Source of the DNA: an uncultured Archangium sp.
Lineage (GTDB): Bacteria; Myxococcota; Myxococcia; Myxococcales; Myxococcaceae
DNA length: 27,197 nt
Assembly (NCBI GenBank): GCA_903861945.1
Contig: CAIOWM010000156.1
Location: 1 to 27,197 of the forward strand
Reading direction: 5' to 3'
Below, piece by piece: positions 2,807-23,085 of the stretch; the stretch's first letter is position 1; each line of letters opens with the position of its first letter. The notes under the pieces are model-generated. The model saw nothing but the letters and a program-made list of their open reading frames with translations, searched no databases and was not told the origin of the DNA. The translations under genes were made by a program, and so were the position numbers.

Positions 2807-4579
2807 ATGAATCCGACGCACGCCGTCCTGCTGTTCGCCCTGTGGTCCAGTACCGTCTTTGCTGTCCTGCTGCCCGACGGCTCGAGCTGTGCCCAGGGCA
2901 CCGCCTGTCAGAGCGGCGCGTGCGTCGACGGCGTGTGCTGCAACACCGTGTGCGGCGCAAATCCCGCGACCGCGAGCACCGGCAACGCGCCCAGCGGCGC
3001 ATGTCAGGCCTGCAGTGTCGCCCGGGGCGCAGCGTCCAACGGGACTTGCGCGGCCATGACGGGCACGGCCTGCAACGACGGCAACGCCTGTACGCAGACC
3101 GATACCTGCCAGGCGGGCACCTGCACCAGCGCGATCCCGGTGACCTGCACCGCGCTGGACCAGTGCCATGCCTCGGGCACCTGCAACCCCGCGACCGGCG
3201 CGTGCTCGAACCCGTTGAAGCCCAACGGCACCACTTGCAACGACAGCAACGCCTGTACACAGACCGATACCTGCCAGGCGGGCACGTGCGCCAGCGGGAA
3301 CACGGTGACCTGCACGGCGCTGGACCAGTGCCATGCCTCGGGCACGTGCAACCCCGCGACCGGCGTGTGCACGAACCCGTCGCAGGCCGACGGCACCGCC
3401 TGCAACGACGGCAACGCCTGCTCGCAGACCGATGCCTGCCAGGCGGGCTCGTGCACCGGCGCGAACCCGGTGACCTGCGCGGCGCTGGACCAGTGCCATG
3501 CCGCGGGCACCTGCAACCCCGCCCTCGGCGTGTGCTCGAACCCGTCGAAGGCCGACGGGACGGCGTGCACCGACAGCAGCGTGTGCACCAGCAACGACGT
3601 GTGCGTCAGCGGCGCGTGTACCGGCGCGGCGACGACCTGCCGCGCCGCCGAGGCGTGCGAAGTAGCCATCGCCTGCGATGCGCAACAGGGCTGCACTTTC
3701 CAGTTCCAGCCTTCGACCGTGTCGTGTCGGGCGGCGTCGTGCGTCGGCGGGCAAGCCCTCGCCGCGATGAACTGCTCAGGCTCGAGCGCGCTGTGCCCCG
3801 CGGGGGCGCCGCTCGACTGTGGCCTCTTCACCTGCGCGTCAGGCGCGTGCCTCACCACCTGCACCGACGACCTGCAGTGCGCGAGCGGCGCGCGGTGCAG
3901 CGCGGGCACCTGCCTGGCGCAGCCGGGGCTCGGAATGTCGTGCACCACGTCGACCGGCTGCCTCGGCGGCCTCCCGTGCGTCGATGGCGTGTGCTGCGGT
4001 GAGGCGTGCGATGGGCAGTGCGCCGCATGCAACGTCGCGGGTCGACTCGGGCAGTGCACGGCCGTCACCGGCGCGCCCGGGGGTTCGCGCGCGGCGTGCG
4101 GTGGCACCGGCGCCTGCGCAGGGGCGTGCGACGGCATGAGCCTCACCGCCTGCGCCTTCCCCGGCGCGTCGATCGAGTGCGCCGGAGCGTCGTGTGACGG
4201 GGGCACCGCCACCGCCGCGTCGACCTGCAACGGCACGGGCCAGTGCAGCGCCGGCGCGACCACCACGTGCGCGCCCTTCACCTGCGGCGGCGCGACCTGC
4301 ACCATGAACTGCACCAGCGACACCGATTGTCAGAGCCCGTTGGTGTGCCGCGCCAGCGCGTGTGTCACGGCCCCGGTCGATGCAGGGGTCGGCGCGGAGA
4401 TCGATGATGCGGGCGTCCTCGTGGCGGACGGCGGCGCAGTTGGAGCGGGAGCGGACGGTGGCGACGACGGCCCGGGCCCGCAGGCGTCGTGCGGTTGCAC
4501 CGGCGGAGATGGCGTCTCGATGCTGGGCCTGCTGGCGGTCGGGTTGCTGCGGGCGCGGCGACGTTCCACGCGGAGCTGA
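2807..4579 (+). CDS. Secreted Cys-rich tandem-repeat protein with a C-terminal MYXO-CTERM sorting signal, 590 aa. The listed ORF 2567..4579 is trimmed to the ATG that lies in front of a signal peptide.
   Basis: The N-terminus MNPTHAVLLFALWSSTVFAVLLP is a signal peptide. About 3.5 copies of a 55-aa unit follow, of the form CNDGNACTQTDTCQAGTC...VTCTALDQCHASGTCNP.TG.C.NP. Further C-rich modules follow. The tail SCGCTGGDGVSMLGLLAVGLLRARRR (about nt 4487..4576) is a classic MYXO-CTERM (TIGR03901-like): GC-motif, then a hydrophobic helix, then Arg residues. Confidence 0.75.
   Translation: MNPTHAVLLFALWSSTVFAVLLPDGSSCAQGTACQSGACVDGVCCNTVCGANPATASTGNAPSGACQACSVARGAASNGTCAAMTGTACNDGNACTQTDTCQAGTCTSAIPVTCTALDQCHASGTCNPATGACSNPLKPNGTTCNDSNACTQTDTCQAGTCASGNTVTCTALDQCHASGTCNPATGVCTNPSQADGTACNDGNACSQTDACQAGSCTGANPVTCAALDQCHAAGTCNPALGVCSNPSKADGTACTDSSVCTSNDVCVSGACTGAATTCRAAEACEVAIACDAQQGCTFQFQPSTVSCRAASCVGGQALAAMNCSGSSALCPAGAPLDCGLFTCASGACLTTCTDDLQCASGARCSAGTCLAQPGLGMSCTTSTGCLGGLPCVDGVCCGEACDGQCAACNVAGRLGQCTAVTGAPGGSRAACGGTGACAGACDGMSLTACAFPGASIECAGASCDGGTATAASTCNGTGQCSAGATTTCAPFTCGGATCTMNCTSDTDCQSPLVCRASACVTAPVDAGVGAEIDDAGVLVADGGAVGAGADGGDDGPGPQASCGCTGGDGVSMLGLLAVGLLRARRRSTRS
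3062..3600 (+). repeat. Intragenic tandem DNA repeat: 165-nt period, about 3.3 copies, about 90% identical
   Basis: The string tgcaacgac(g/a)gcaacgcctg...cagaccgat(a/g)cctgccaggcgggc recurs at 3071, 3236 and 3401 with an exact 165-nt spacing. A degenerate fourth copy lies near 3566. Confidence 0.8.
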
Positions 4580-4727
4580 CGCAGCCCAGGCGGGAGCGCC
4601 GCTCCTTCAATACGAAGGGGCGGCCCCTCGTTGCCAGCGTGCAACCTGTGGATTCACCGGAAGGAACGGAGCGGCCCGGGCGATGCACACAGGGCGCCCG
4701 CTGTACCCACACCCCACGGAGAATCCC

Positions 4728-4955
4728 ATGCTCAACATCGAAACCATCAAGCCCGACATGCCCGTCGTCTGTTCCAACAATGGCCAGTTCGCCGTCGTCG
4801 ACCACATGGAGGGGAAGGACAGCATCAAGCTCAAGAAGGACGACGCCGGAAAGCACCACTTCATCCCGGTGAGCTGGGTGAAGAGCGTCGACGGCAAGGT
4901 GCACGTCGATCGTCCGGGTGCGCAGGCGATGAAGGAATGGCGCACCGAGGCCTGA
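4728..4955 (+). CDS. DUF2171 (PRC-barrel-like) domain protein, 75 aa
   Basis: MLNIETIKPDMPVVCSNNGQFAVVDHMEGKDSIKLKKDDAGKHHFIPVSWVKSVDGKVHV matches the DUF2171 pattern (M.V.GSDG..VG.VD..EG..IKL.K.D..G..HHFIP..WV). GGAGA lies 8 to 12 nt upstream of the ATG. This ATG is in frame with the listed ORF 4362..4955. Confidence 0.7.
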   Translation: MLNIETIKPDMPVVCSNNGQFAVVDHMEGKDSIKLKKDDAGKHHFIPVSWVKSVDGKVHVDRPGAQAMKEWRTEA

Positions 4956-7413: not shown

Positions 7414-7512
7414 ACTCCTGGGGTGCGCCGAAGACGGCGATCGCTTACGCCCCTGCTTCTCCCCGGTTGCCCCAGTCACGCAGGGCCCCGGGTGACGCCA
7501 AAGAGGGCATCC

Positions 7513-10500
7513 ATGTTCGCGTTCGTACAGGTCGAGTTCCTCCGCATCCAGTCCGTCATCCGCGCGGGGGTCCTGGGGCTCGCGCTCCTGGCGGCCTCCG
7601 GCTGCGACGCCACCGTGGGTGAGCTGGCCTGTCCCGAGGGTGCCTTCTCGGGGTCGGACCGCGGGGTCTGCGCGCCCTGGACGGAGTGTCCTGCAGGGCA
7701 GCACCAGGTGGCTGCCGGAAGCGCGACGACGGACCGGACCTGCGCGAGCTGCGCCGCCGGGACCTTCAGCACGCAGGCCAACGCGGCGAGCTGCGCGGCG
7801 TGGACGACGTGCGTCGCCGGGGAGTTCGTCTCGCTCGAGGGCTCGGCCACCGCCGACCGGACCTGCGAGGCCTGCAGCGCGGGGACCTCCAGCACGGGCG
7901 TGAACCAGGCGGCGTGCACGGCCTCCGCCGGGTGCGAGCCCGGGACTGAGCAGGCGGCGCCAGCGACCACCACCGCCCCCGCGGTGTGCACGACCTGCAG
8001 CGCCGGTCACTTCTGCGCGGGCGGTGTGGCGCCGGCCGTGGCCTGCGGGCCCGGGACGTGGGACCGCGACGGGCTGCCCGCCACGGCGTGCGAACCGCAG
8101 AGCCACTGCGGCCCCGGGACGTCCGTGCTGGCTCCCGCGACCGCGACGGAAGACCAGACCTGCTCGGGCTGCGCGAGCGGCTCGTACAGCACCGCGACGG
8201 ACGCGGCGACGTGCACGCCGTGGGCGACGTGCCCGGCCGGTACCTTCGTCAACGACACGCCGTCGGCGACCGTCGACCAGACCTGCGCCGCCTGCGCGCC
8301 TGGAACCTTCACCACGGGCGCGAACCAAGTGACGTGCCTGGCGATCGGCGCGTGCCCTGCGGGGACGGTGCAGACGGCCCCGGCCACGGCGACGACGCCG
8401 CCCACCTGCAGCGCCTGCGTCGCCGGCACCTACTGCGCGGGCGGCAGCGCGACGGCCCTGGCCTGTGCCGTGGGCACCTGGGACCACGACGGTGATGCCT
8501 CGACGCCGTGCACGGCCCACACGGAGTGCGTCGCGGGGCAGTTCATGCTGACCGCGGGCACCGCCACCGCGGACCGGGTGTGTGGCGCGTGCGTGTCCGG
8601 CTACACCTCGAGCGGGAACCCGACGAGCTGCACCGCGTGGACGACCTGCGCCGCGGGCACCTTCGTGGCGACGCCGGGCACCGCGACGAGCGACCGGGTG
8701 TGCGCCGCGTGTGCCTCGGGCTACACGGCCAGCGCGAACGCGACGAGCTGCTCCGCGTGGGCGACGTGCGCGGCGGGGACCTTCGTGTCGACCGCGGGGA
8801 CGGCGACGGCCAACCGGGTCTGCACGGCCTGCGGCTCAGGCTTCACCTCGAGCCCGAACGCGACGAACTGCACGGCCTGGTCGGCGTGCGCGGCGGGGAC
8901 CTTCGTGGCGACCGCGGGGACGTCGACGGCCGACCGGGTGTGCGCCGCGTGTGCGTCTGGCTACACCGCGAGCCTCAACGCCGCGAGCTGCACCGCGTGG
9001 ACGACCTGCGCGGCGGGGACCTCCGTGGTGACCGCGGGCACCGCGACGGCCAATCGGACCTGCCTCGCGTGCAGCGCCGGCTTCACCTCGGGCACGAACG
9101 CCGCGAGCTGCACGTCCTGGACGACCTGCCTCGCCGGAACGTACGTCTCGACGGTCGGCACCGCGACGGTCGACCGCTCGTGCAGCCCGTGCGGCACCGG
9201 CTTCACGGCGGGCGCGAACGCCGCGGCCTGCACCGCGTGGACGACGTGCGCCGCGGGGACGTCGATCTCCGTCGCCGGCACCGCGACCAACAACCGGGCG
9301 TGCACCCCCTGCGCCTCCGGCTTCGCGCCGGGCCAGAACGCCCTGGCCTGCACCGCGTGGACGACGTGCCCGGCCGGTACCTTCGTCAGCACCACGCCGT
9401 CAGCGACCACCGACCGGGTGTGCGCGCCGTGCGTCTCCGGCTACACGGGGGCCCCGAACTCCCTGGGCTGTCAGCCGTGGAGCATCTGCACCCCGGGCAC
9501 CTTCGTGTCGGTCGCCAGCACGGCCACGTCGGACCTGCAGTGCACGGCGTGCCCCGCGGGCCAGACCAGCACCACGTCGAACGCGGCCGGGTGTCTGCCG
9601 GGCAGGTCCGTCGGCGGCACGGTCACGGGCCTGACCAGCGCGGGCCTGGTCCTGCAGAACAACCTGGGCGATGACCTGGCCGTCACGGCCAATGGCGCCT
9701 TCACCTTCGCGACGCCCCTGGCGGGTGCCGGCGCCAGCTACTCGGTCACGGTGAAGACGCCGCCGACCGCGAACCTGCCGCTCCCGGTCCAGGTCCAGGC
9801 GTGCACCCTGCTGAAGACCTCCGGGACGACCTTGCTGAACACCGGGTCGGGCACGGTGCCTCCCACCGGGAACGTCACCACCATCGAGCTGCGCTGTGGC
9901 GGGGCGTGGAGCGCGGTGGCGGCCGGGTACGCACACGTCCTGGCGGTGAAACCCACGGGGGACGTGTACGCGTGGGGCGACAACACCAATGCCGCGTTGG
10001 GCGACGGGACCACGACGGCACGCTCCACGCCGGTATGGGTGGGCGCCGGCCTGGCCAAGGTGGCGGCCGGCGGAAGCCACAGCCTGGCACTCGCTCCCGA
10101 CGGCTCACTGTGGGCGTGGGGGTTCAACTTCACAGGCCAGCTGGGCGACGGGAAGACGGAGGTCCAACGCAACCGGCCAGCGCCCGTGCCGCTGGCAGCG
10201 CCGCCCTTCCGCGCGGTGGCGGCGGGCCAGAGCCACACCGTGGCCGTCAAGACGGACGGGACCCTCTGGGCCTGGGGCAACAACGACTTTGGCCAGGTCG
10301 GGGACGGGACGACGGCGACTGAGCGCGATGCGCCCGTGCAGATCGGCACCGGCTTCGCGTCGGTGGCGGCCGGCGAGACCCACTCCCTGGCGGTCAAGAC
10401 GGACGGGACCCTCTGGGCCTGGGGCAAGAACGACTTTGGCCAGCTCGGGGACGGGACGACGACGCACCGCTTTGCGCCCGTGCAGGTCGGCACCGGCTTC

Positions 10501-10926
10501 GCGTCGGTGGCCGGGGGCTCCTCCTATTCGGCGGCGGTGAAGACGGACGGCACGCTGTGGACGTGGGGCATCAACGGCTACGGGGCGTTGGGAGACGGGA
10601 CCACCACGACGCGCCTCGCGCCGGTGCAAGTGGGGAGCGGCTTCGCCTCGGTCGCGACCGGCTCGTGGAACACCTACGCGCTCAAGCCCGACGGCACGCT
10701 CTGGGCCTGCGGGTACAACGTCTACGGGCAGGTCGGTGACGGGACGACGACGACGCGCACCACGCTGGTGCCCATTGGCCCGGGGTTCGCGTCCGTGGCC
10801 GCAGGAAGCAGCTTCGCGGCCGCGCTGATGTTGGACAAGACGGTGTGGACCTGGGGCTACAACGGCCGGTTCAGCCTGGGCACCGGTGGCACCGTCAACA
10901 GCTCGACGCCCCAGTTCCTGCCCTAG
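7513..10926 (+). CDS. Giant secreted protein of 1137 aa. It has about 20 Cys-rich, 40-aa repeats of the ephrin-receptor-like / GCC2_GCC3 / TNFR-like type, then a beta-sandwich linker, then a C-terminal 7-blade RCC1-type beta-propeller.
   Basis: The N-terminus [31 protein letters not shown] is a signal peptide. The repeat consensus is C.AC.SG(Y/F)T.....(T/S)C.AW(T/A)TC.AGTFV...GTAT.DRVC. The tail carries 7 copies of the RCC1 repeat [34 protein letters not shown]. The listed ORF 7423..10926 is trimmed to the ATG at 7513, which has AGAGGG upstream. Confidence 0.8.
8521..9480 (+). repeat. Intragenic tandem DNA repeat: 120-nt period (40 aa), at least 8 consecutive copies that are highly similar at the nucleotide level
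   Basis: The string tgcaccgcgtggacgacctgcgc(g/c)gcggg(g/c)acc(t/g)tcgtg recurs at 8629, 8749, 8869, 8989, 9109, 9229 and 9349, an exact 120-nt spacing. More diverged copies run from about 7700 to 8500 and from 9480 to 9600. Confidence 0.8.
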
Positions 10927-13916: not shown

Positions 13917-15365
13917 TCACGCTGGCGCAGTCGCGCGGTCCCGAACGGCGCCGTCGAATGCCCGGAGGCGGTGCACCAGCACCTCGCCCTCGATGCCCTT
14001 GAGATGCAAGCGCTCGGAGTTGGACGAGGCGAAGCGGGTGCGCGCGATCTCCAGCGCCGCGGGGTGGTCGAACACGTCCTGGGTGGTGACCACTTCGCCG
14101 GCGGCGGCCCTGGCCTGAACGCGGGCGGCGACGTTGACGGTGCGGCCGAAGTAGTCGAGCTGCTGGTTGGACTCGATGGCCACGCACGAGCCCACGTGCA
14201 CGCCGATCTTCAGGGTCAGTGACTCGCTCGCCTCGAGCTTCGCCATCTCTTCGTGCATCGCGGCCGCGGCCGCGAGCGCTCGGGAGGGCTCGGCGAAGCT
14301 GGCCATCACCGCGTCGCCGATGGTCTTGACCACCGCGCCCCGCTCGCGGGCGATGACCGACTCGAGCACCTCGAAGTGACGACGGACCAGCGCGAGCGCC
14401 TGGAGGTCGCCCACGCGCTCGTAGAGCTCGGTCGACGCGGTGAGGTCGGTGAAGAGAATGGCGAGGCTGCGCAGCTGCATGCCGCCGTCGGTGCCGACGC
14501 TCTGGGCGCGGTAGAGCTCGCGGAAGGTCTGGTTGGTGAGCAACTGCTTGGCGCTGACGAAGGGCATGAAGGCGATGACGTGTGAGGCCCAGTCAAAGGT
14601 CTTCGCCCACTCCGTCGAGGACCAGAGCATCAGCGCGGGGTGCCGGGTGCGGTTGCGGACGGTGAGCCGCACCTTTCCCGTGGCCAGGGTGCTGGTGCCG
14701 ACGAGGTGCCCGTCGATGATCTCGACCGACTGCACCGCCGCCCCACCCGGCCCCGCCTCGAGGTGCGCGATGGCGTGCTGGTTCGCCCCGACCAGCGCAT
14801 AGGAACCCTCGGTGAGCTCGAGGTCGAACACCGCGCTGGCCTCGGGTGCGATCCACGCCATGCGCTCCATCGAGTCGGCGATGGCCTGGTGCATCGGCCC
14901 GCGAATCAGGCTGCGGGAATAGAAGGCGTCGGTGAAGTGAGCGCGCACCTCTTCGAGCGTGCCCAGCCGCGTCGAGGGCAGCCTGCGAACGGCTTCGGCC
15001 ACGGTGAAGGAGGCCTCGACGGTGTCATCGAGGGAGACCGTCACCGGGCGCCGGCAGAAGTTGCACACCGCGCTGCGCTCGAGCTGCTGCAGCGCGCCCT
15101 TCGTCGCGACGTGGAGCCCACAGGCAGGGCACATGAGGTTCCACGCGAGATCGAAGATCCCCGCGTGGCTGGCGCAGAGAAAGAGGTCGAGCGCGTCGCC
15201 TTCGCTGACGCCCTCGCCCTTCGCCCACCCGAGCACGTTGATGCGTTCGAGGGAGGTGTCGGAGGCTTCGCGAACGAAGTGACCGAGCTTCGGCAGCAGC
15301 GACTTCAGTTGCGGGTACGCCCGCCCCATGGCTTCGAGGCGGCCTTCCAGAGAGGCCCATGACAT
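13917..15365 (-). CDS. Class III adenylate/guanylate cyclase (CHD catalytic domain) with an N-terminal Cys4 zinc-ribbon-containing sensor domain (DUF5939-like), 482 aa
   Basis: The C-terminal region LAILFTDLTASTELYERVGD....HFEVLESVIARERGAVVKTIGDAVMASF......AAAAMHEEMAKL......LKIGVHVGSCVA.....DYFGRTVNVAARVQ is the nucleotidyl cyclase CHD signature. The N-terminal region has CPACG...CNFC. The listed ORF start at 15458 adds a low-GC3, PRPPP-rich extension, so I prefer the ATG at 15365 (MSWASL). Confidence 0.8.
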   Translation of the reverse strand: MSWASLEGRLEAMGRAYPQLKSLLPKLGHFVREASDTSLERINVLGWAKGEGVSEGDALDLFLCASHAGIFDLAWNLMCPACGLHVATKGALQQLERSAVCNFCRRPVTVSLDDTVEASFTVAEAVRRLPSTRLGTLEEVRAHFTDAFYSRSLIRGPMHQAIADSMERMAWIAPEASAVFDLELTEGSYALVGANQHAIAHLEAGPGGAAVQSVEIIDGHLVGTSTLATGKVRLTVRNRTRHPALMLWSSTEWAKTFDWASHVIAFMPFVSAKQLLTNQTFRELYRAQSVGTDGGMQLRSLAILFTDLTASTELYERVGDLQALALVRRHFEVLESVIARERGAVVKTIGDAVMASFAEPSRALAAAAAMHEEMAKLEASESLTLKIGVHVGSCVAIESNQQLDYFGRTVNVAARVQARAAAGEVVTTQDVFDHPAALEIARTRFASSNSERLHLKGIEGEVLVHRLRAFDGAVRDRATAPA

Positions 15366-15419: not shown

Positions 15420-15596
15420 CCGAGGTCGAGTCGGACCAGATGCGCGGCGAGCGCGCATCCTGCCCAGGTCAACGAGCGAAGTTGCGCGCAGGCTTCGATT
15501 CGCCGCCCCGGAGGTCGAGGCCGAGGCGCCGAAACGAACGAAGGCGGCGGAGCACCTCGCTCCACCGCCTCCGCAGGACGTCAGCTCAGCGGCGCC

Positions 15597-17597
15597 TCAG
15601 GGGCAGCGCGCCGTCTGCTGGCTGCACGTGCCGGTGCCGCAGAAGCGGCCCAGGCAACACAGCTGGCCTTGCCCACCGCAGGCCTCGCACTGGGTGTTGC
15701 CGTTGCACACGTCGCCGGCCCCGCAGTAGCGGCCGCCGGAGCCGCCGCAGCAGCGCTGGCCCGTGCCGCCGCAGGCCACGCAGGTGTTGTTGTTGGCCAC
15801 GGTGTTCGGGGCGGTGCAGCCCACGCCATTGCCGCACGGGGGCTGGCCGAGGCGACCGCAGGCCACGGTGGCCGAGAGGCAGCCCGCGCCCACGCAGATG
15901 CCCGCGCCGCCGCCGCACTGCGCGCCCGAGGCGGTGCAGGTGCGGTTGTTCTGGTCGCAGCAGCCGGCGCCCGCGCAGGTGTTGCCGTTGCAGCACGGCT
16001 GGCCCGGCCCACCACACGTGGTGCAGCCGTTGCCGTCGCAGGCGAGGCCGCTGGCGGTGCAGAAGTCGGCCGCGTTGCCCCCAGCGGCGCAGCACTGGGC
16101 GTTCGCCCCGGCGCCGCCACACTGCGAGCACGCGCCCGCGGTGCAGGTGCCGAGGTTGGTGCCACAGGTCGCGCCCGAGGCCACGCAGGTGGTGCCCGCG
16201 CAGCAGCCGCCGGCGCCGCACGCCGAGTTCTCGCAGCACGGCTGACCTGCGCCGCCGCACGCCGTCAACGTACCGCCCTGGCACACCGTGGTGCCGCCGG
16301 GGCCGTTGGCGCCCACCGCGAGGCAGGTCGAGCTCGCCGCGTCGAGGCACGTGCCGTTGTTGCAGGTGGTGCCACCGCAGGCCGCCTGGCCGGCGCCGCC
16401 GCAGGGGCCGCACAGGCCGCCACCGCACGCGAGCGTCGCGCCGTTGCAGCTGGTGCCGCCACAGCACGGCTGGCCGAGACCGCCGCAGCCCGCGCACTGG
16501 CCGGTGGCCGCGCACAGGTCACCGCCGCCGCAGGTCGAACCGCTGGCGAGGCACACCGAGTTGCCGCGCGTGTCGCAGCAGCCGCCGGTGCACGCCGCGC
16601 CCGCGCAGCAGGGTTCCCCGACGCCGCCGCAGGCCTGGCAGCGATTGTTGCCGCCGCACACGGTGTTGGCGCCGCACGCCACGGCCCCCGGACAGCAGGG
16701 CTCGCCGGGACCACCGCAGGCCGCGCACGCGCCCTGGGAACAGGCGGTGCCCGCGGCCGTGCAGGTGGCGTTGCCGCAGCACGGCTGGCCGGCGCCGCCG
16801 CACGTCACGCAGCTGGTGCCCGCCGAGCAGGTGGTCGCGCCCGCGGTGCAGGCCCCGCCGGGGCAGCAGGTCTGGGTCAAGCCGCCGCAGGTGCCGCAGC
16901 TCCCGTTGGCGCAGGCGCCGCCGATGCCGGTGCAGGTCGAGCCCGCGCCGACGCAGGCGTTGTTGACGCAGCAGCCGCCACCACCGCAGGTGCCCGCGGC
17001 GCAGCACGGCTGGCCAGGCCCGCCACACAGGGCGCAGGTGGACGGGTTCTGCCCGGAGCAGACGCTGCCCAGGTCGCACTGCCGGTTGGCGCAGCAGGTC
17101 TCGCCGGGACCGCCGCACACGGTGCAGGTGTTGTTGCGGCAGGTCGCGCCGGCCGCGGTGCAGCTGTTGTTGCCGCAGCACACCTCGCCGAGCCCGCCAC
17201 AGGTCGCGCAGTTGCCGCCCGCGCAGGTGCTGCCGGCCGCGGTGCAGCTCTGGCCGGCGCAGCACGCCTCGCCGATGCCGCCGCAGGTGCCGCAGCTGCC
17301 GTTGGTGCACACGCCCATGGCCCCGCCGCACGAGGCGCCGGCCGCGACGCAGGTGTTGCCCAGGCAACAGCCTCCGGCGCCGCAGGTGTTACCGGCACAA
17401 CAGAGTTCTCCAGCGTTACCGCACGACAGGCCGCCGTCGTCGAGCAGCGCGCTTCCGCCGCCGGTGCCCGTGCCTCCGCCGGTGGTGCCGTCACCGCCGC
17501 CCGAGGAGGCGCCTGCGTCGGGGTCGGCCGCGATGCCGTTGTTGCAGACGCACGCGGGGGCGAGCGCGAGGAGCGCGAGAATCAGCAGTGAACGCAT
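15597..17597 (-). CDS. Secreted Cys/Gly-rich repeat protein, 666 aa, with about 22 copies of a 27-28-aa, 6-Cys unit
   Basis: MRSLLILALLALAPACV is a signal peptide; the ATG at 17597 has GGAG about 10 nt upstream. The repeat unit is C.(T/A)CGG.G(Q/E)PCC.G..C(T/.)..G..C..G.C. There is no MYXO-CTERM tail. The listed ORF 15597..17687 is trimmed. The plus-strand ORFs 15669..17591 and 16288..17682 are Ala-rich and Pro-rich shadows. Confidence 0.75.
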   Translation of the reverse strand: MRSLLILALLALAPACVCNNGIAADPDAGASSGGGDGTTGGGTGTGGGSALLDDGGLSCGNAGELCCAGNTCGAGGCCLGNTCVAAGASCGGAMGVCTNGSCGTCGGIGEACCAGQSCTAAGSTCAGGNCATCGGLGEVCCGNNSCTAAGATCRNNTCTVCGGPGETCCANRQCDLGSVCSGQNPSTCALCGGPGQPCCAAGTCGGGGCCVNNACVGAGSTCTGIGGACANGSCGTCGGLTQTCCPGGACTAGATTCSAGTSCVTCGGAGQPCCGNATCTAAGTACSQGACAACGGPGEPCCPGAVACGANTVCGGNNRCQACGGVGEPCCAGAACTGGCCDTRGNSVCLASGSTCGGGDLCAATGQCAGCGGLGQPCCGGTSCNGATLACGGGLCGPCGGAGQAACGGTTCNNGTCLDAASSTCLAVGANGPGGTTVCQGGTLTACGGAGQPCCENSACGAGGCCAGTTCVASGATCGTNLGTCTAGACSQCGGAGANAQCCAAGGNAADFCTASGLACDGNGCTTCGGPGQPCCNGNTCAGAGCCDQNNRTCTASGAQCGGGAGICVGAGCLSATVACGRLGQPPCGNGVGCTAPNTVANNNTCVACGGTGQRCCGGSGGRYCGAGDVCNGNTQCEACGGQGQLCCLGRFCGTGTCSQQTARCP
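15700..17380 (-). repeat. Intragenic repeat array with a period of about 81 to 84 nt; the copies have diverged at the DNA level
   Basis: The periodicity is clear in the translation (CGG.G.PCC every 27 to 28 residues). DNA copies share ccgccgcaggc/ccgcagcacggctggcc-type cores, but they are not near-identical like the other two arrays. Confidence 0.5.
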
Positions 17598-17696
17598 GTG
17601 TGGGAGGCTCCGAGAGAGGGGGACGACGGTCGGCCAAGGCGAAGACCCCCGCTGGGCCTCATCGATCACACTTTGTTGGTAGGCCACGGACCTACG

Positions 17697-19055
17697 TCAC
17701 TCGGCGAGCACGCCCACGAGGTACTCGCCGGCGAGCGGGCCGGTGGGCGCCTGGTAGGTGTCGAGCGACAGCCAGTACGTACCGGCCGCGAGCTGCCGGG
17801 TGAGGAACTTGTCGTGGCGCGCGATGCAGGACTGGCCCGAGCCGGGGTCCGACAGGAGGTGCACGTCGATGTCGGCGTTGCCCAGCGAGACCACCACCAC
17901 GCGCAGGTTGGTGGGTTGGGTGAGCTCGAGGCGGTAGAGCACCTCGCGGCCCCCTTCGTTGGTGGTCGAGCCGCACCCCGGGTAGCTGTCGAGACGCGCC
18001 GCGCCGTCGGTGCGCGTGTCGCGGGTGTCGACGAAGGGCAGCGAGGTGACGGCGATCTCGTCTCCGCGGACGCCGGTGCCGGGGCGGCGGGGGGCCGTGA
18101 GGTCGGCCGGGGCGCCCTGCTCCACCGCGGCCCAGGCGCGCGCGAGGGCCTCGAGGGTGCCGAGGTTGCGCGCGTTGTGCCCGAAGTCGAGCGGCCCGGG
18201 GTTCAGGTTGCAGCCGCGCGGTCCGCCCGAGAGGAAGACGTTGAGGTGGATGCCGTCGGGGCCCAGGCCGTGTGCCGTGACGCCCTGCAGCTCGCGGTGG
18301 AGATCGATGAAAGGCACCTGGCGCGCCTGGGCCACGCCGCGGGCGACGAGGTTGTAGCGGGGCACCCAGGCGTCGGCCGTCGCGCTGTCATCGCGCGGGG
18401 GCACGGAGGTGATGAGCGGCACCACGCCCTGGGCGGTGAGCGTGTCGACGAGGCTGAAGAGGTTGCGACCGAAGCTGGCCGGGTCGGCGAAGCCCACGTC
18501 GTTGGTGCCGAACATCACCGTGGCGTAGCGCGGCGAGGCGGCGTCGAGCTCCTGCTGCAACGGGGAAGGCGTGCCGGCGCTGGCGGCGCTGGCGCTCCAG
18601 CCGACGGTGGCGGCCAGCGTGGTGCGGTCGAAGGGCGACGTGGTGCCCACCCGGCCCGCGCGGAAATGCGCCAGCACCGCGTCGAGCGAGCTGCGACCCG
18701 CGAGGTCGACCTGCGCGCCGGCGAAGCACGACAGGTAGCTCGCGTTCACGGTGTTCGAGTCGCCGATCTTCGAGAAGACGTTGCCCTTCTTCGCAGGGGC
18801 GAGGGCGGCGATGGCCTGGAGCCGGGTGACGACCTCCGCGGTGAGCGGCGAGTGCTTGCGGTCCAGGGGGTACACCAGCACCGAGGGGCCCGCGTCGGGA
18901 GGCGTCACGGCCACGCCCGCGTCGGAGGCGAGCGCCACCGAGCCGTCAGGCAGGGACTCCACCGGGAAGCTGGCGCCAGCGTCCTCTTCGAACTCGAGCG
19001 GCACCACCCCACACGCGGCGAGCAGCACACAGGGAAAGAGGAGGGGGAACCGCAT
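17697..19055 (-). CDS. SGNH/GDSL-family hydrolase (esterase/lipase) lipoprotein with a C-terminal bacterial pre-peptidase C-terminal (PPC) domain, 452 aa
   Basis: MRFPLLFPCVLLAACG carries a lipobox (L-A-A-C). FSKIGDSNT is SGNH block I (GDS). MFGTNDVG is block III and LGPDGIHLN is block V (D..H). The C-terminal region YRLELTQPTNLRVVVVSLGNADIDVHLL.....C......L.AGTYWLSLDTY is PPC-like. Confidence 0.8.
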   Translation of the reverse strand: MRFPLLFPCVLLAACGVVPLEFEEDAGASFPVESLPDGSVALASDAGVAVTPPDAGPSVLVYPLDRKHSPLTAEVVTRLQAIAALAPAKKGNVFSKIGDSNTVNASYLSCFAGAQVDLAGRSSLDAVLAHFRAGRVGTTSPFDRTTLAATVGWSASAASAGTPSPLQQELDAASPRYATVMFGTNDVGFADPASFGRNLFSLVDTLTAQGVVPLITSVPPRDDSATADAWVPRYNLVARGVAQARQVPFIDLHRELQGVTAHGLGPDGIHLNVFLSGGPRGCNLNPGPLDFGHNARNLGTLEALARAWAAVEQGAPADLTAPRRPGTGVRGDEIAVTSLPFVDTRDTRTDGAARLDSYPGCGSTTNEGGREVLYRLELTQPTNLRVVVVSLGNADIDVHLLSDPGSGQSCIARHDKFLTRQLAAGTYWLSLDTYQAPTGPLAGEYLVGVLAE

Positions 19056-19100
19056 CCGGGGTCCGTTCTCGCACACCTCGGGGGGGAACTTCGACGGGGG

Positions 19101-20570
19101 TCAGCGAGAGAGGCGCGCTCGCAGCAGGGCCAGCGCAGCCAGGAAGCCCAGGCTGTCCAGCGAGGAGCAGCCACAGCCGGTCAGGGGCGTGTCCACCCCG
19201 GGGCCTGCGTCGACAGCGCCGTCACCACCGCCGGTGACCGGGTCGCTGCTTCCGCCACCCCCACCGGAGGCCGCGCCACCACCACTCCCACCCGTCGCCG
19301 AGCCGCCACCACCACCACCACTCCCGCCACCCGCCCCGGCGTCGGCCACGCCCGCGTCACATTCACCGAGCGCGTGCTCCAGGGCCCCGGCGGTCCACGC
19401 GCTCGGGGTGCGCAACCGCGCGCAGTAGTCATCGGTCACGCCAGCCGGAGGCGTCACCTGGCCGAGCCACGCCGCCACCGAGCCGCGCACGCGCAGGTCG
19501 CCGCTCAGCGCGCTCGCGTAGGCCGCGTCGAAGGTGGCGAGGGACACGCCGGTCACGTTCTGCGTCGCGGTCATGGTGGCCGCGTCACGGGTGCGCACCG
19601 CGGAGGTGAGCAGGTTGCCCACGGCCCGGCCGCTGGTGGTGTCGAAGCGGAAGTCGACGCCCGTGGTGCCCACCAGGGTGTTGTGCAGCACCGAGGTGTT
19701 GCGCGCGCGGTTCAGGTACACGCCGACGTCGCTGCAGTTGGCGATGACGTTGTTCCGCAGCACGCCGTCTTCGTGCTCCACGGCGCAGGGCACGTTGGCG
19801 TCGAAGGCCGGGGCACAGAACTGGTTGCCGGTGCCGCCCCCTCCGAACGAGAGCCCGAGGCGCACGTCGCTCATGGCCTGGCCGCCGCTCTTGCACAGCA
19901 CGAGGTTGCGCTCGTAGAGCCCGCGCTTGCCGCCGGACTTCATGAAGCTGCCGTAGCTGGTGAAGTTTCCGCCGTTCTTCGAGAAGTCTCGGATGACGTT
20001 GTCGCGCACCACGAAGTCGTCGCCGGTGTCGATGTTCAGCTTGGTGACCGGGTTGGCCGTGTTGCGCGGGCGCGTGTCGTAGACCTCGCAGCGTTCGACG
20101 AGGCCCCGGTGCGGCATGTCGTAGCCTCCGTCACCCGCGGGCGTGGCGTTGACCTTGAGCTGGGCGTTGAAGTCGACGAGGCGCAGGCGGCGCAGCACCA
20201 CGTCGGTGGCGCGGCCCGTGACCTGGAACGCGTGCTCGCAGTTGGAGTCGTCGGCGCACACCCCGCGCATCGCGAAGTCCTCGAAGCGCCAGAACGGCGC
20301 GCTGACGCCGATGGCGATGAGGGTGTTCGACTCGAGGGTGGCGCCCCACGGCGTCTCGCCGCGCACCACGATGGGCAAGGCCTGCGTGCCGGTGGCGACG
20401 CAGGAGAGCTTCGAGGTCAGCGCATAGGTGCCGTCGGCCAGGGTGATGACGTCGCCAGGCTGCGCCGCCGCGAGGGCCGCGCGCAGTTGGGGCTCGGTGG
20501 TGACGCGGACGTCACGCGCGGCGGCGAAGGAAGCGAAGAGGGCGAGCGACAGGAAGAGGAGGCGGCGCAT
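19101..20570 (-). CDS. Right-handed parallel beta-helix protein (PL6/chondroitinase-B-like polysaccharide-lyase fold) with a Gly-rich linker and a C-terminal MYXO-CTERM sorting signal, 489 aa
   Basis: MRRLLFLSLALFASFAAA is a signal peptide. TEPQLRAALAAAQPGDVITLADGTY is a PL6-type N-terminal motif. Repeated N..(I/V).N / RDNVIRD / HNTL beta-helix rungs follow. The tail is GGGSGGGGGGS...TGCGCSSLDSLGFLAALALLRARLSR (nt about 19104..19178). Confidence 0.8.
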   Translation of the reverse strand: MRRLLFLSLALFASFAAARDVRVTTEPQLRAALAAAQPGDVITLADGTYALTSKLSCVATGTQALPIVVRGETPWGATLESNTLIAIGVSAPFWRFEDFAMRGVCADDSNCEHAFQVTGRATDVVLRRLRLVDFNAQLKVNATPAGDGGYDMPHRGLVERCEVYDTRPRNTANPVTKLNIDTGDDFVVRDNVIRDFSKNGGNFTSYGSFMKSGGKRGLYERNLVLCKSGGQAMSDVRLGLSFGGGGTGNQFCAPAFDANVPCAVEHEDGVLRNNVIANCSDVGVYLNRARNTSVLHNTLVGTTGVDFRFDTTSGRAVGNLLTSAVRTRDAATMTATQNVTGVSLATFDAAYASALSGDLRVRGSVAAWLGQVTPPAGVTDDYCARLRTPSAWTAGALEHALGECDAGVADAGAGGGSGGGGGGSATGGSGGGAASGGGGGSSDPVTGGGDGAVDAGPGVDTPLTGCGCSSLDSLGFLAALALLRARLSR

Positions 20571-20620
20571 GGGCCGCGACCATGACCTGAAACGTCACCC
20601 CGGGCGCGTTCTGCGCGCCG

Positions 20621-21142
20621 TCACGCCGTCGTGCCGCGGGGGAGCGGCGCCGCGGAGGACTTGAAGAGCGGGGGCAGGCCGAAGGGCGTGACGAGGCAGG
20701 CCGCGAGCCAGATGGCCGGGCCCCCGAGGGTCTCCGGGCTGAACGCGATGAGGCCAGGCACGACCTGGGTGAAGAGGAACGCGTTGTCGATGACCCCGAT
20801 GACCACCACGCCCAGGAAGTACGCCGCCCAGGAAGACTGCTTCCAGATCATCCACGCCAGCGCGAGCCCCAGCAGGCCGGAAGCGCCGACGTCGATCACG
20901 AAGTTGAGCGCCAGGTGACCTTGCACGGTGGAGGTCACGAGGTCGGTGCTGTGCTGGTACGCGGCAACGGGCGCGTTGGAGCCCCCGAGGAACATGGTCC
21001 ACAGGCCCTTGGTGCCGTTCACCAGGTACTGGCGCGCCCCCTCGACGCCGACCCACACGTGCAACACGCCCCACACCGCGAACAAGCCAGCGCCGATCTT
21101 CCCTGCGAGACCCAGCGCGGGTGCTTCCCTGGCGGACACCAT
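20621..21142 (-). CDS. Small integral membrane protein with 4 predicted TM helices (DoxX-like), 173 aa
   Basis: It has an ATG start and four hydrophobic segments: IGAGLFAVWGVLHVWVGV, LALNFVIDVGASGLLGLALAWMIW, AAYFLGVVVIGVIDNAFLF and PAIWLAACLVTPFGL. It is transcribed divergently from the LysR gene. The rest of the listed ORF 20621..22069 is an Arg-rich shadow of the LysR gene. Confidence 0.55.
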   Translation of the reverse strand: MVSAREAPALGLAGKIGAGLFAVWGVLHVWVGVEGARQYLVNGTKGLWTMFLGGSNAPVAAYQHSTDLVTSTVQGHLALNFVIDVGASGLLGLALAWMIWKQSSWAAYFLGVVVIGVIDNAFLFTQVVPGLIAFSPETLGGPAIWLAACLVTPFGLPPLFKSSAAPLPRGTTA

Positions 21143-21234
21143 GACTGCCTCCTGCCGGCGTGCGCCACGGGCGAGCGGGAGTGCTCGCGACCCGGGTGAC
21201 CACCGAACGAAGACACAGTGCGCAGGTTGCTCAT

Positions 21235-21251
21235 TTGCGACAAGACGGCAA
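21235..21251. promoter_or_regulatory. Candidate LysR-type regulator binding site: dyad TTGC-N9-GCAA in the divergent intergenic region
   Basis: Read directly: atTTGCgacaagacgGCAAaa. It fits the T-N11-A / dyad architecture of LTTR boxes. It sits 45 nt upstream of the LysR ATG and about 90 nt upstream of the divergent membrane-protein gene. Confidence 0.3.
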
Positions 21252-21295
21252 AACTTCACCCTGCAGTTGCGTTCAGGCAACCAAGGAGACCGCCC

Positions 21296-22177
21296 ATGCT
21301 CTTCGATGAAATCGAGCTCTTCGCCCAGGTGGCCGAGGCCGGAACGCTGGCCGCCGCGGCACGCAAGCTGGAGGTGCCCAAGTCCACGCTCTCGCGGGCC
21401 ATCGCGCGGCTCGAGGCGAAGACGGGGGTGCCGTTGCTGTACCGGGCGGCGCGGTCCTTCACGCTCACCGAAGAGGGGCGGCGCTTCTTCGACGCCGTGG
21501 CGCCGCACGTGGCCGGCCTGGGAGAAGCCACGCGCCTGCTGGGCACCGCGGCGGATCAACCCGAGGGCACGCTGCGCATCAGCGCCCCCCTGGCGAGCGG
21601 AGACCTCTTCGGCGCCGCGGCGGTGCACTTCGCCCAGCGTTACCCGCGCGTGCGCCTCGATCTCGAGCTCTCGTCGCGCAAGGTGGACCTGGTGCGCGAG
21701 GGCTTCGACGTCGCGCTGCGCGGCACCCCGAGCCTCAGGGGCGACGCGCTCACGGCGCGCAAGCTCACCAACGGGCAACTCCACCTGTACGCGGCGCCGA
21801 CGTACCTCGCGCGCCGCGGCACGCCGGAGACCACCGAAGACGTCGGCACCCACGAACTGGCTGCGCACGCGCCTTCGTTGAAGGCCGCCCCCCTGCGACC
21901 GGCTGCGCTGCAGCTCGCGTTCACCTCGGCGCGCATCGCGGTCAACGAGTTCGGCTTCCTGCGCAGCATGCTGGTGGCGGGCGCCGGCATCGGGCTGCTG
22001 CCCCAGTCGCACGCCGCGCAGGATGTCGCCGACGGCCGCCTGGTGCGCGTGCTCCCGGGGTGGTCGCACGTCATCGGGGCGCTGTATTTGATCTACCCCA
22101 CGGCCCGGCAGCTCCCCCGGAAGGTCGCGGCGTTCCGCGACTTCCTCGTCGAGGCGTTTCGCGGCGCGGCGAGCTGA
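21296..22177 (+). CDS. LysR-family transcriptional regulator, 293 aa
   Basis: MLFDEIELFAQVAEAGTLAAAARKLEVPKSTLSRAIARLE is the LysR N-terminal HTH. A LysR substrate-binding-domain-like region follows. AGGAGA lies 8 to 13 nt upstream of the ATG. The listed ORF 21218..22177 is trimmed. Confidence 0.85.
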   Translation: MLFDEIELFAQVAEAGTLAAAARKLEVPKSTLSRAIARLEAKTGVPLLYRAARSFTLTEEGRRFFDAVAPHVAGLGEATRLLGTAADQPEGTLRISAPLASGDLFGAAAVHFAQRYPRVRLDLELSSRKVDLVREGFDVALRGTPSLRGDALTARKLTNGQLHLYAAPTYLARRGTPETTEDVGTHELAAHAPSLKAAPLRPAALQLAFTSARIAVNEFGFLRSMLVAGAGIGLLPQSHAAQDVADGRLVRVLPGWSHVIGALYLIYPTARQLPRKVAAFRDFLVEAFRGAAS

Positions 22178-22206: not shown

Positions 22207-23085
22207 ATGCGCTCCCTCCTCTTTTCCGCGGTGATGCTCATCTCCAGCGTTTCTCTCGGTGCCGACATTGCCGGCACCCTGAGCGGTACGTTCGTCAACT
22301 TCGACCAGTTCGGCACGCCGCAGGTGCGCTTCAATCTCGACCTGACGTGCGCGCTGAGCTGCACCGCCTCCGCGCCGGGACCTCACTACGGGAGCACGGG
22401 CTACATCGACGGCTACTTCGCCTCGGAGCCCAGCACGGGCTTGTGTCTCATCGGCCTGGCCAACCTCTTCGCCGACGTCGACCCCACGGGGAGCGCCACC
22501 AGGGTGAGCTCGCCGCCCGCGGGTTCGCGGATCACCGCGCGCGCCAACGGCGTGACGTGCTGGTGCGGGGGCTCGCTGGCCATCGGCCAGGGGGGGTTCA
22601 TCCAACCCGAGTCGGGGATCATCTCGATTCCTCCGTCCTTCAGCGGCGACCAGACGGCGAAGGTGGGCGAGCAGGCCTTCATCCTCGTGACGGCCGCGCC
22701 CAGGGGCAGCGAGACGGTGGAGGTGACCACGTCGGGCGCGGGCCTCGCGACGTCCACGCAGACCTTCGGGCCCAGCGACTTTCCCTCGAACAGCAGCTGC
22801 CCCTCGGCAGGCTTCAAGTCGCTGCAGCTGACGCCCACGCAGGCCGGCACGCTGACCATCACCGCGACCCTGAACCCGGGCGCCGCGACCTCGACGTACA
22901 CCGTGACGGTCAGCGCCTCGGGCTCGGGCGGTGGCGGGGGCAGCGCTTCGACGGGCGGGGGCAGCGGCAGCACGGGCGGTGGTTCCGGGAGCACTGACGG
23001 GGGCTGCAGCGCGGTGCCAGTGCCGCTGCTCCTCGCGGTCGGCGCGTGGCTGGCGCGTCGTCGTGCGCAGGCGCCCGGGTGCTGA
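22207..23085 (+). CDS. Secreted hypothetical protein with a Gly/Ser linker and a MYXO-CTERM sorting signal, 292 aa
   Basis: MRSLLFSAVMLISSVSLGADIAG is a signal peptide. The body is Thr/Ser-rich and beta-rich. The tail is GSGGGGGSASTGGGSGSTGGGSGSTDGGCSAVPVPLLLAVGAWLARRRA (nt about 22999..23082). The listed ORF 22060..23085 is trimmed to the ATG at 22207. Confidence 0.7.
   Translation: MRSLLFSAVMLISSVSLGADIAGTLSGTFVNFDQFGTPQVRFNLDLTCALSCTASAPGPHYGSTGYIDGYFASEPSTGLCLIGLANLFADVDPTGSATRVSSPPAGSRITARANGVTCWCGGSLAIGQGGFIQPESGIISIPPSFSGDQTAKVGEQAFILVTAAPRGSETVEVTTSGAGLATSTQTFGPSDFPSNSSCPSAGFKSLQLTPTQAGTLTITATLNPGAATSTYTVTVSASGSGGGGGSASTGGGSGSTGGGSGSTDGGCSAVPVPLLLAVGAWLARRRAQAPGC

Follow-up and report, generated by a model that had tools for sequence, protein, structure and literature searches.

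A LysR-type regulator gene and a divergent membrane-protein gene form a conserved pair, probably juxtaposed by lineage with three exported-protein genes in an uncultured Archangium

The window analyzed here is a 27,197-nucleotide stretch of an uncultured Archangium sp. (contig CAIOWM010000156.1 of assembly GCA_903861945.1), a Myxococcota metagenome-assembled genome with a G+C content of ~71% in the window. It contains a gene for a LysR-type transcriptional regulator (LTTR), which stands opposite four minus-strand genes encoding, in order, a small membrane protein, a right-handed beta-helix protein, an SGNH/GDSL lipoprotein and a cysteine-rich repeat protein. A preliminary description made from the DNA letters had read this arrangement as a regulated extracellular glycan-degrading or predatory module. 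We find that the conserved unit is the LysR gene opposite the membrane-protein gene, and that it occurs alone, without the three exported-protein genes. The region is therefore best read as a probable lineage-specific juxtaposition of a self-contained LysR/membrane-protein pair with three independently distributed genes for exported proteins. Its parts are of known kinds, namely a LysR pair, a beta-helix protein from a family annotated as carbohydrate-active, an SGNH esterase and MYXO-CTERM sorting, and the evidence points to an ordinary LysR/target pair beside unrelated exported-protein genes rather than to a new system.

Identical contigs in two public assemblies (ENA/NCBI metagenome assembly ERZ1426838 and Logan assembly ERR4195033) carry gene calls that agree exactly with the five originally proposed genes, with products of 173, 489, 452, 666 and 293 aa, and in these frames the G+C content at third codon positions (GC3) is 0.91-0.95. 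The four minus-strand genes are separated by 50, 45 and 99 nt, in gene order. They do form a block as first drawn, but according to the public gene calls the same-strand run comprises seven genes, the three beyond the fourth encoding a DUF5939 adenylate/guanylate cyclase, an S1-domain protein and an AbiEi_4 protein.

Synteny in related genomes had been set beforehand as the test of a dedicated module, and the arrangement was found in none of 80 beta-helix, 5 SGNH and 82 membrane-protein loci. For the beta-helix gene, a scan of one genome per species gave 468 relatives, of which the best 80 loci (homologues at 50-82% identity) were taken with up to 10 kb of flank per side. When these loci were searched by tblastn with the window proteins, no membrane-protein, SGNH or cysteine-rich homologue was detected, and a LysR-like gene was present in three loci, in no case both divergent and adjacent. 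Profile searches of the same loci returned no member of the membrane-protein family, one weak SGNH match ~5 kb away and five LysR genes, again none of them divergent and adjacent. The closest beta-helix relatives (60-82% identity) share another upstream set, in which a divergent gene for an HExxH membrane protein of 314 aa is accompanied by genes for a lipoprotein of 115 aa and a protein of 258 aa, and clustering of neighbors placed the Corallococcus and Myxococcus beta-helix genes in yet another common context. The HExxH set occurs at L003, L004, L006, L018-L021 and L046, and some of these loci have a differently patterned cysteine-rich protein nearby.

The other families are distributed just as separately. 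SGNH homologues (61-67% identity) lie in four further contexts, all mutually different and none with a beta-helix gene. On the 9.4-Mb contig JASGKS010000001 a beta-helix homologue at 5.15 Mb and an SGNH homologue at 6.70 Mb are 1.5 Mb apart, and in assembly JAYVFP the two are found on different contigs (178 and 160). None of the three exported-protein genes was present in the 82 loci of membrane-protein homologues. Across 171 loci, a CG..G..CC repeat protein was found only as the window's own copy and at the locus of its best homologue (47% identity), which lies downstream of glycosyltransferase and asparagine-synthase genes. As the adjacency of the three exported-protein genes is not conserved, it does not imply a shared pathway.

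The pairing of the membrane-protein gene with a LysR gene, on the other hand, recurs. The 173-aa protein has hydrophobic segments at residues 9-34, 77-99, 106-124 and 142-160, and belongs to a small, unannotated family with 58 hits. It had been called a DoxX-like protein with four transmembrane segments; the four hydrophobic segments are present, but the DoxX identity is unsupported and was rejected, because none of 22 family members matched Pfam DoxX (PF07681) at E<=1 and the window protein itself has no Pfam or NCBIfam match. A divergent LysR gene was found in all four of the closer homologue contexts, and one distant homologue is divergent from an HxlR regulator. The genes downstream of the homologues vary: a short-chain dehydrogenase (adh_short) twice, a pirin once and a convergent gene once. 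Among 80 metagenome loci, those with a membrane-protein homologue at 68-82% identity and sufficient upstream sequence carry the orthologous LysR, with the exception of L089, in which no LysR lies upstream of the homologue. At five metagenome loci representing three distinct lineages (L087 and L091-L094) the orthologous LysR (73-82% identity) is located 118-170 nt from the membrane-protein gene.

The regulator matches HTH_1 with 64.8 bits and LysR_substrate with 121.4 bits (Pfam), which bears out its initial assignment to the LysR family. Alignment of the orthologous intergenic regions revealed a conserved block of ~70 nt adjoining lysR, which includes a perfect dyad, AGGnTGA, CCnTCTTG and an imperfect dyad. 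The perfect dyad, GTTGC-N6-GCAAC, is invariant across four independent orthologous intergenic regions (alignment A3) and is likely to be the LysR recognition site. Its chance expectation is 0.05 per window, against two copies found, and among the 171 loci it occurs in the orthologous intergenic regions only, plus once elsewhere. The imperfect dyad lies 40 bp away, center to center, and its G..GC-N6-GCAAC columns are likewise invariant in alignment A3; the standard operator layout of the LysR family is our reason for proposing it as an activation site. The dyad originally singled out, TTGC-N9-GCAA, does exist in the shared intergenic region and overlaps the conserved block, but its arms vary between orthologues, the central CCGTCTTG being the only conserved part. 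It is also not statistically unusual, with at least one match in 19 of 100 shuffles. Non-conserved arms and chance-level occurrence led us to reject it as the operator in favor of GTTGC-N6-GCAAC. The region thus has, as other LysR systems do, a protein with HTH_1 and LysR_substrate, a likely target that is transcribed divergently from it, and an interrupted dyad that is conserved. The membrane-protein gene is the likely direct target of the regulator, and the operator is now outlined closely enough to be tested for binding directly.

Two further observations concern these sites. A second exact copy of GTTGC-N6-GCAAC lies at window positions 4630-4645, in an intergenic region. The gene that begins ~83 nt further downstream, a 75-aa DUF2171 gene (4728-4955, plus strand; 91.6 bits), could be a further regulon member, or the match could be coincidental. 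A second type of LysR protein, 306 aa long, also pairs with this membrane-protein family and has its own conserved intergenic sequence, AGTCTATCCCA(N)ATT (L170, 5890-5960; L088, 7920-7960).

By analogy with the LysR-family paradigm, the regulator would most likely bind the perfect dyad beside its own start and thereby repress its own gene, and most likely would also bind the weaker second dyad beside the membrane-gene promoter. Detection of a small-molecule ligand would then lead it to activate that promoter through the second site. The genomic context hints weakly at a redox or electrophile signal and not at glycan use, as the pair elsewhere occurs by itself or is followed by a gene for a short-chain dehydrogenase or a pirin, and an HxlR regulator can take the place of LysR. 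The three exported-protein genes may be read through from the membrane-protein gene as far as a hairpin after the fourth gene.

This terminator-like hairpin begins 23 nt past the stop codon of the 666-aa gene. The RNA of 15459-15606 (minus strand) folds with -85.3 kcal/mol (z = -4.0), and none of 200 shuffles folded as well. The three gaps inside the block gave folding z values of 0.5, 0.0 and 0.6, i.e., they contain no hairpin. A consensus terminator scan recovered part of the hairpin, at chance level, and a search of the window against Rfam returned no known RNA. A sigma-70 promoter scan, which is poorly suited to Myxococcota, detected no promoter-like sites in the window. Short gaps, and the position of the sole terminator-like hairpin behind the fourth gene, make a four-gene transcript ending at this point plausible in this lineage. 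The DUF5939 and adenylate/guanylate cyclase gene (13917-15365, minus strand) is the next same-strand gene after the hairpin.

The beta-helix protein was examined as the presumed lyase of the proposed module. It has an N-terminal signal peptide, and its AlphaFold2 (AF2) model, with a mean predicted local distance difference test score (pLDDT) of 80, shows a right-handed parallel beta-helix. By structure comparison the closest folds are lyases of polysaccharide lyase (PL) families 9 and 31, followed by PL6, and Foldseek gives the same families. Its Pfam matches (Beta_helix, 22.9 bits; Chondroitinas_B, 19 bits; NosD) are all sub-threshold. The PL6-type N-terminal motif noticed earlier is therefore present but below threshold: the Chondroitinas_B match, which is limited to residues 24-81, reaches 19 of the 24 bits required, so that this model does not place the protein in PL6. 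Profile matches to PL6 and PL31 structures are confined to the N-terminal cap (residues ~19-117; for PL6, ~19-100), and no lyase-family threshold was passed in the Pfam check that had been suggested for this protein. As modeled, it appears to behave as a member of the pectate-lyase-like beta-helix superfamily, and membership in PL6 or another lyase family is not established. Its PL9/PL31/PL6-like fold suggests that it is probably a polysaccharide-cleaving or polysaccharide-binding enzyme. The Ca2+ site of PL6 enzymes, as Michel et al. (2004) are cited in PMC4954714, consists of Asn, Glu and Glu, and adjacent turns supply Lys as the base and Arg as the acid. In the beta-helix family K139, K177, K211, R189, N179, D181 and E220 are invariant and could be candidates for the Lys, Arg and Ca2+ roles.

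The family is large. Its homologues (50-82% identity) number at least 845 and all come from Myxococcota, among them Myxococcus, Corallococcus, Archangium, Stigmatella, Hyalangium, Sorangium and Labilithrix, and they are annotated as 'chondroitinase-B domain-containing', 'PE-PGRS family' or 'MYXO-CTERM domain-containing'. The family alignment contains nine invariant cysteines and the invariant motifs CEHAF, FNAQLKVN, LNIDTGDD, SYGxFMKSGG and GLSFGGGGT, followed by a variable Gly-rich linker and a tail of GCGC, a hydrophobic stretch and RRR. MYXO-CTERM signals are defined by three parts, a Cys-containing signature (GCGC), a transmembrane helix and an Arg-rich tail (PMC11980579). The C terminus of the window protein, TGCGCSSLDSLGFLAALALLRARLSR, has GCGC, a hydrophobic segment at 465-483 and the tail RARLSR, and matches the MYXO-CTERM model TIGR03382 with 16.2 bits (cut-off 15.85). 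Together with the signal peptide it conforms to the sorting-signal definition, in agreement with the anchor originally proposed. A literature search found no functional study of the family, which is Myxococcota-wide, strongly conserved and uncharacterized, and, given its PL9/PL31-like fold, a candidate for a role in exopolysaccharide turnover. Two other exported proteins encoded in the window have MYXO-CTERM-type tails, and neither has a Pfam match: a cysteine-rich protein of 590 aa (2807-4579, plus strand; TIGR03382, 21.6 bits) with a different repeat (CNDGNACTQTDTCQAGTC...), and a 292-aa protein (22207-23085, plus strand) whose tail ends GGCSAV...ARRRAQ.

The SGNH protein matches Lipase_GDSL_2 (PF13472) with 64.1 bits against a cut-off of 32.9 and carries the lipobox LLAAC. 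Residues G98, S100, G183, N185, D186, D267 and H270 are invariant in 29 homologues. The model match and the Ser, Gly, Asn and His blocks of an SGNH/GDSL hydrolase are thus all found, and the SGNH/GDSL lipoprotein of the preliminary description, with S100, N185, D267 and H270 intact, stands. The AF2 model (pLDDT 86) shows the C-terminal ~130 residues as a beta-sandwich, for which Foldseek retrieved the PPC domain of Bacillus collagenase (5sv5, TM-score 0.69) and the collagen-binding domain of ColG (1nqj, TM-score 0.67). The PPC domain that had been proposed here is accordingly accepted at the level of fold but was rejected as an assignment by hidden Markov model, since residues 323-452 gave no match to Pfam PPC (PF04151) even at E<=10. 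The SGNH part resembles TesA, Axe2, peptidoglycan O-acetylesterase (Ape) and phage tail fibers; these matches are generic and give no specific pointer to the substrate. A direct sequence search of the PDB with the SGNH protein gave no match. Among the homologue loci, L084 (6360-9368) has a tandem pair of SGNH paralogues (507 and 455 aa) a short distance before gyrB, and L086 has a single SGNH gene ~3.5 kb upstream of gyrB, with four genes between.

The cysteine-rich repeat family is the sole element here without any existing annotation. The 666-aa protein has an N-terminal signal peptide ending APAC and consists of 18% Cys and 25% Gly, with 0.3% Phe, 0.2% Tyr and no Trp. It had been credited with about 22 CGGxGxPCC repeats; the repeats are real but this count is too high, as we find 13 strict CGGxGxxCC matches and ~17 units when the pattern is relaxed. 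Units are of two types, one of 28 aa with the spacing C-x6-CC-x4-C-x6-C-x4-C and one of 46-52 aa with ten cysteines, and repetition at the DNA level is recognizable in the first three units only (84-nt period). An exhaustive HMMER search collected 579 representative clusters at E<=1e-3, of which 210 remain at E<=1e-10. Some members are fused to Peptidase_S8 (subtilase) or FG-GAP repeats, and all named members are called 'hypothetical protein'. Neither Pfam nor NCBIfam has a family on the repeat, whether searched with the whole protein, with homologues or with single units, and PDB sequence and profile searches gave only non-significant matches (E 0.03-0.16 for a profile of the 28-aa unit, with high composition bias). 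On these results we rejected an identity with any known family in the three databases, and the repeat family, absent from Pfam and NCBIfam, stands as a lead. The antisense frames of this gene (15669-17682, plus strand) are long and open with a GC3 of 0.91-0.95 and can mislead GC3-based gene calling. For the cysteine-rich and membrane-protein genes alike, the antisense frames look coding because second codon positions are G/C-rich. Hundreds of homologues in which the cysteine spacing is conserved speak for the minus-strand frame of the cysteine-rich gene.

How far do the four genes belong together? In the reading closest to the preliminary description, they would form one LysR-controlled operon for a surface-anchored machine that degrades an acetylated acidic polysaccharide, in which the lyase cuts the backbone, the SGNH enzyme deacetylates and the cysteine-rich protein binds or scaffolds. 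Such a module would be of moderate interest for myxobacterial ecology, and several features are in keeping with it: the genes are co-directional, with short gaps free of hairpins and a terminator-like hairpin past the fourth, the block is preceded by a conserved LysR operator, each of the three products has an export signal, the beta-helix fold is nearest to PL9, PL31 and PL6 lyases, and the SGNH catalytic residues are invariant. We nevertheless consider this operon unlikely. The arrangement has no synteny in any of the three sets of homologue loci, and the LysR pair is conserved without the three exported-protein genes. The beta-helix protein stays under every lyase threshold, with lyase-like sequence limited to its N-terminal cap, and the fold matches of the SGNH protein are generic. 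A scarcity of aromatic residues is atypical of carbohydrate-binding modules, and the repeat protein is nearly aromatic-free. Of the initial reading we thus retain the list of parts (a surface protein with a lyase-like beta-helix, an SGNH esterase with its catalytic residues intact, and a LysR gene whose intergenic region resembles an operator) but not the dedicated module. Nor are the parts themselves undescribed, as had been thought, because public databases already carry annotations for the beta-helix and SGNH families.

At the other extreme, each exported-protein gene might have its own promoter and an unrelated housekeeping role at the surface, the beta-helix protein for example trimming the cell's own exopolysaccharide, while LysR controls the membrane-protein gene only. 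This would suit the presence of the beta-helix family in many contexts in Myxococcus, Corallococcus, Archangium, Sorangium, Labilithrix and other genera, as well as the membrane-gene orthologues, which are monocistronic or followed by unrelated genes, and the 99 nt ahead of the fourth gene would leave room for a promoter. However, the sigma-70 scan, with its poor fit to Myxococcota, detected no promoter-like sites, and no terminator-like structure separates the membrane-protein and beta-helix genes; we judge full independence to be improbable. It is similarly doubtful that a redox-type LysR/membrane-protein pair has captured three surface-protein genes to give a new LysR-controlled surface-remodeling operon, with the CGxxGxxCC units constituting an undescribed extracellular disulfide-rich repeat family of at least 579 clusters with subtilase and FG-GAP fusions.

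The juxtaposition of a conserved pair with independently distributed genes remains the reading that we favor, and four points weigh against it. The gaps of the block, without an intervening hairpin, perhaps reflect one LysR-dependent transcript in this organism, and the four genes would then be co-regulated even without ancestral linkage. The nearest relatives examined are only 82% (beta-helix) and 66-71% (SGNH) identical, so that an operon conserved at the level of the genus may exist. The three downstream products are all exported, and a lyase-like beta-helix protein and an esterase make a sensible biochemical pair. Finally, the pairing of LysR with the membrane protein is not universal, since distant homologues (52-58% identity) mostly have no LysR detectable by tblastn, which is present in just 16 of 56 testable loci.

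Table. Features of the LysR region and of the adjoining minus-strand block (window positions; a dot marks features without strand)
Feature	Position	Strand	Basis or remark
LysR-type transcriptional regulator, 293 aa	21296..22177	+	HTH_1, LysR_substrate
Perfect dyad GTTGC-N6-GCAAC, likely LysR recognition site (predicted)	21266..21281	.	14 nt upstream of lysR ATG
TTGC-N9-GCAA dyad of the preliminary description	21235..21251	.	present, overlaps conserved block
Second, imperfect dyad GTCGC-N6-GCAAC (read in membrane-gene direction), putative activation site beside membrane-gene promoter	21226..21241	.	alignment A3
173-aa membrane protein, four hydrophobic segments, unannotated family	20621..21142	-	hydropathy; homologue contexts
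489-aa exported right-handed beta-helix protein, Gly-rich linker, MYXO-CTERM anchor	19101..20570	-	
452-aa SGNH/GDSL lipoprotein esterase, C-terminal PPC-like beta-sandwich (residues ~320-452)	17697..19055	-	Lipase_GDSL_2, AF2, Foldseek
666-aa probable lipoprotein, ~17 units each opening with CGxxGxxCC	15597..17597	-	repeat parsing
Terminator-like hairpin: 16-bp stem, 5-nt loop, then UCGUUUC	15538..15574	-	RNA folding

Elsewhere in the window, a plus-strand gene at 7423-10926 encodes a protein of ~1137-1167 aa with six TNFR/NGFR cysteine-rich modules (TNFR_c6, 194 bits, E 3e-58), which are followed by RCC1 repeats (WD40_RLD, 432 bits). Modules of the TNFR type count among the eukaryote-type domains, and their presence in a bacterium looks unusual.

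Lyase and carbohydrate esterase gene pairs are known from polysaccharide utilization, for instance pectin PL genes with carbohydrate esterase family 12 (CE12) genes, and alginate systems. The window resembles these in that a lyase-like beta-helix gene adjoins an SGNH esterase gene; it differs in that the pairing is absent from every related genome examined and that no transporter, sugar-catabolic or binding-protein genes lie alongside. Taken singly, the beta-helix protein shares with Pel9A (PL9, 1ru4), a PL31 alginate lyase (6kfn) and the PL6 chondroitinase B and alginate lyases the N-terminal cap xLxxALxxAxxGDxIxLxxGxY, and its orthologues carry the chondroitinase-B annotation. Unlike these lyases, to which it is only 13-19% identical, it has Pfam matches that are all below the gathering score, a sequence similarity that stops short of the catalytic turns, and, besides its MYXO-CTERM signal, motifs (CEHAF, FNAQLKVN, LNIDTGDD, GLSFGGGGT) and nine invariant cysteines of its own family. 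The SGNH protein joins a catalytic domain to a C-terminal jelly-roll, as do SGNH esterases with an appended beta-sandwich (5sv5 and 1nqj, TM-scores 0.67-0.69), and departs from PPC-bearing proteins in its missing PPC match in Pfam. For the cysteine-rich units, the spacing C-G-x5-CC-x4-C-x6-C-x4-C recalls the N-terminal half of the disintegrin domain, where CGxPxNPCCxxxTC is alike, and LDL-receptor class A; with E values of 0.03-0.16, composition bias and no Pfam Disintegrin match for the repeat, this likeness is a lead only.

The regulator and its target follow the pattern of LTTR divergent pairs, in which a protein with HTH_1 and LysR_substrate is encoded divergently from its likely target. 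The best NCBIfam match is E. coli YafC-like, at 167 bits far under the equivalog cut-off of 470. An interrupted dyad by the regulator start and a second, weaker site towards the target promoter also conform to the LTTR paradigm. The textbook LysR-type motif is T-N11-A, whereas the dyad here, being GTTGC-N6-GCAAC, has evenly spaced T...A pairs (T-N10-A or T-N12-A), and the target is an unannotated four-segment membrane protein. In the MYXO-CTERM/myxosortase system, exemplified by TraA (PMC11980579), GCGC, a hydrophobic helix, an Arg-rich tail and a signal peptide occur together, as they do in the 489-aa protein. In the case of TraA the cargo is a recognition receptor, whereas the predicted processing in Archangium would act on an enzyme-like beta-helix domain.

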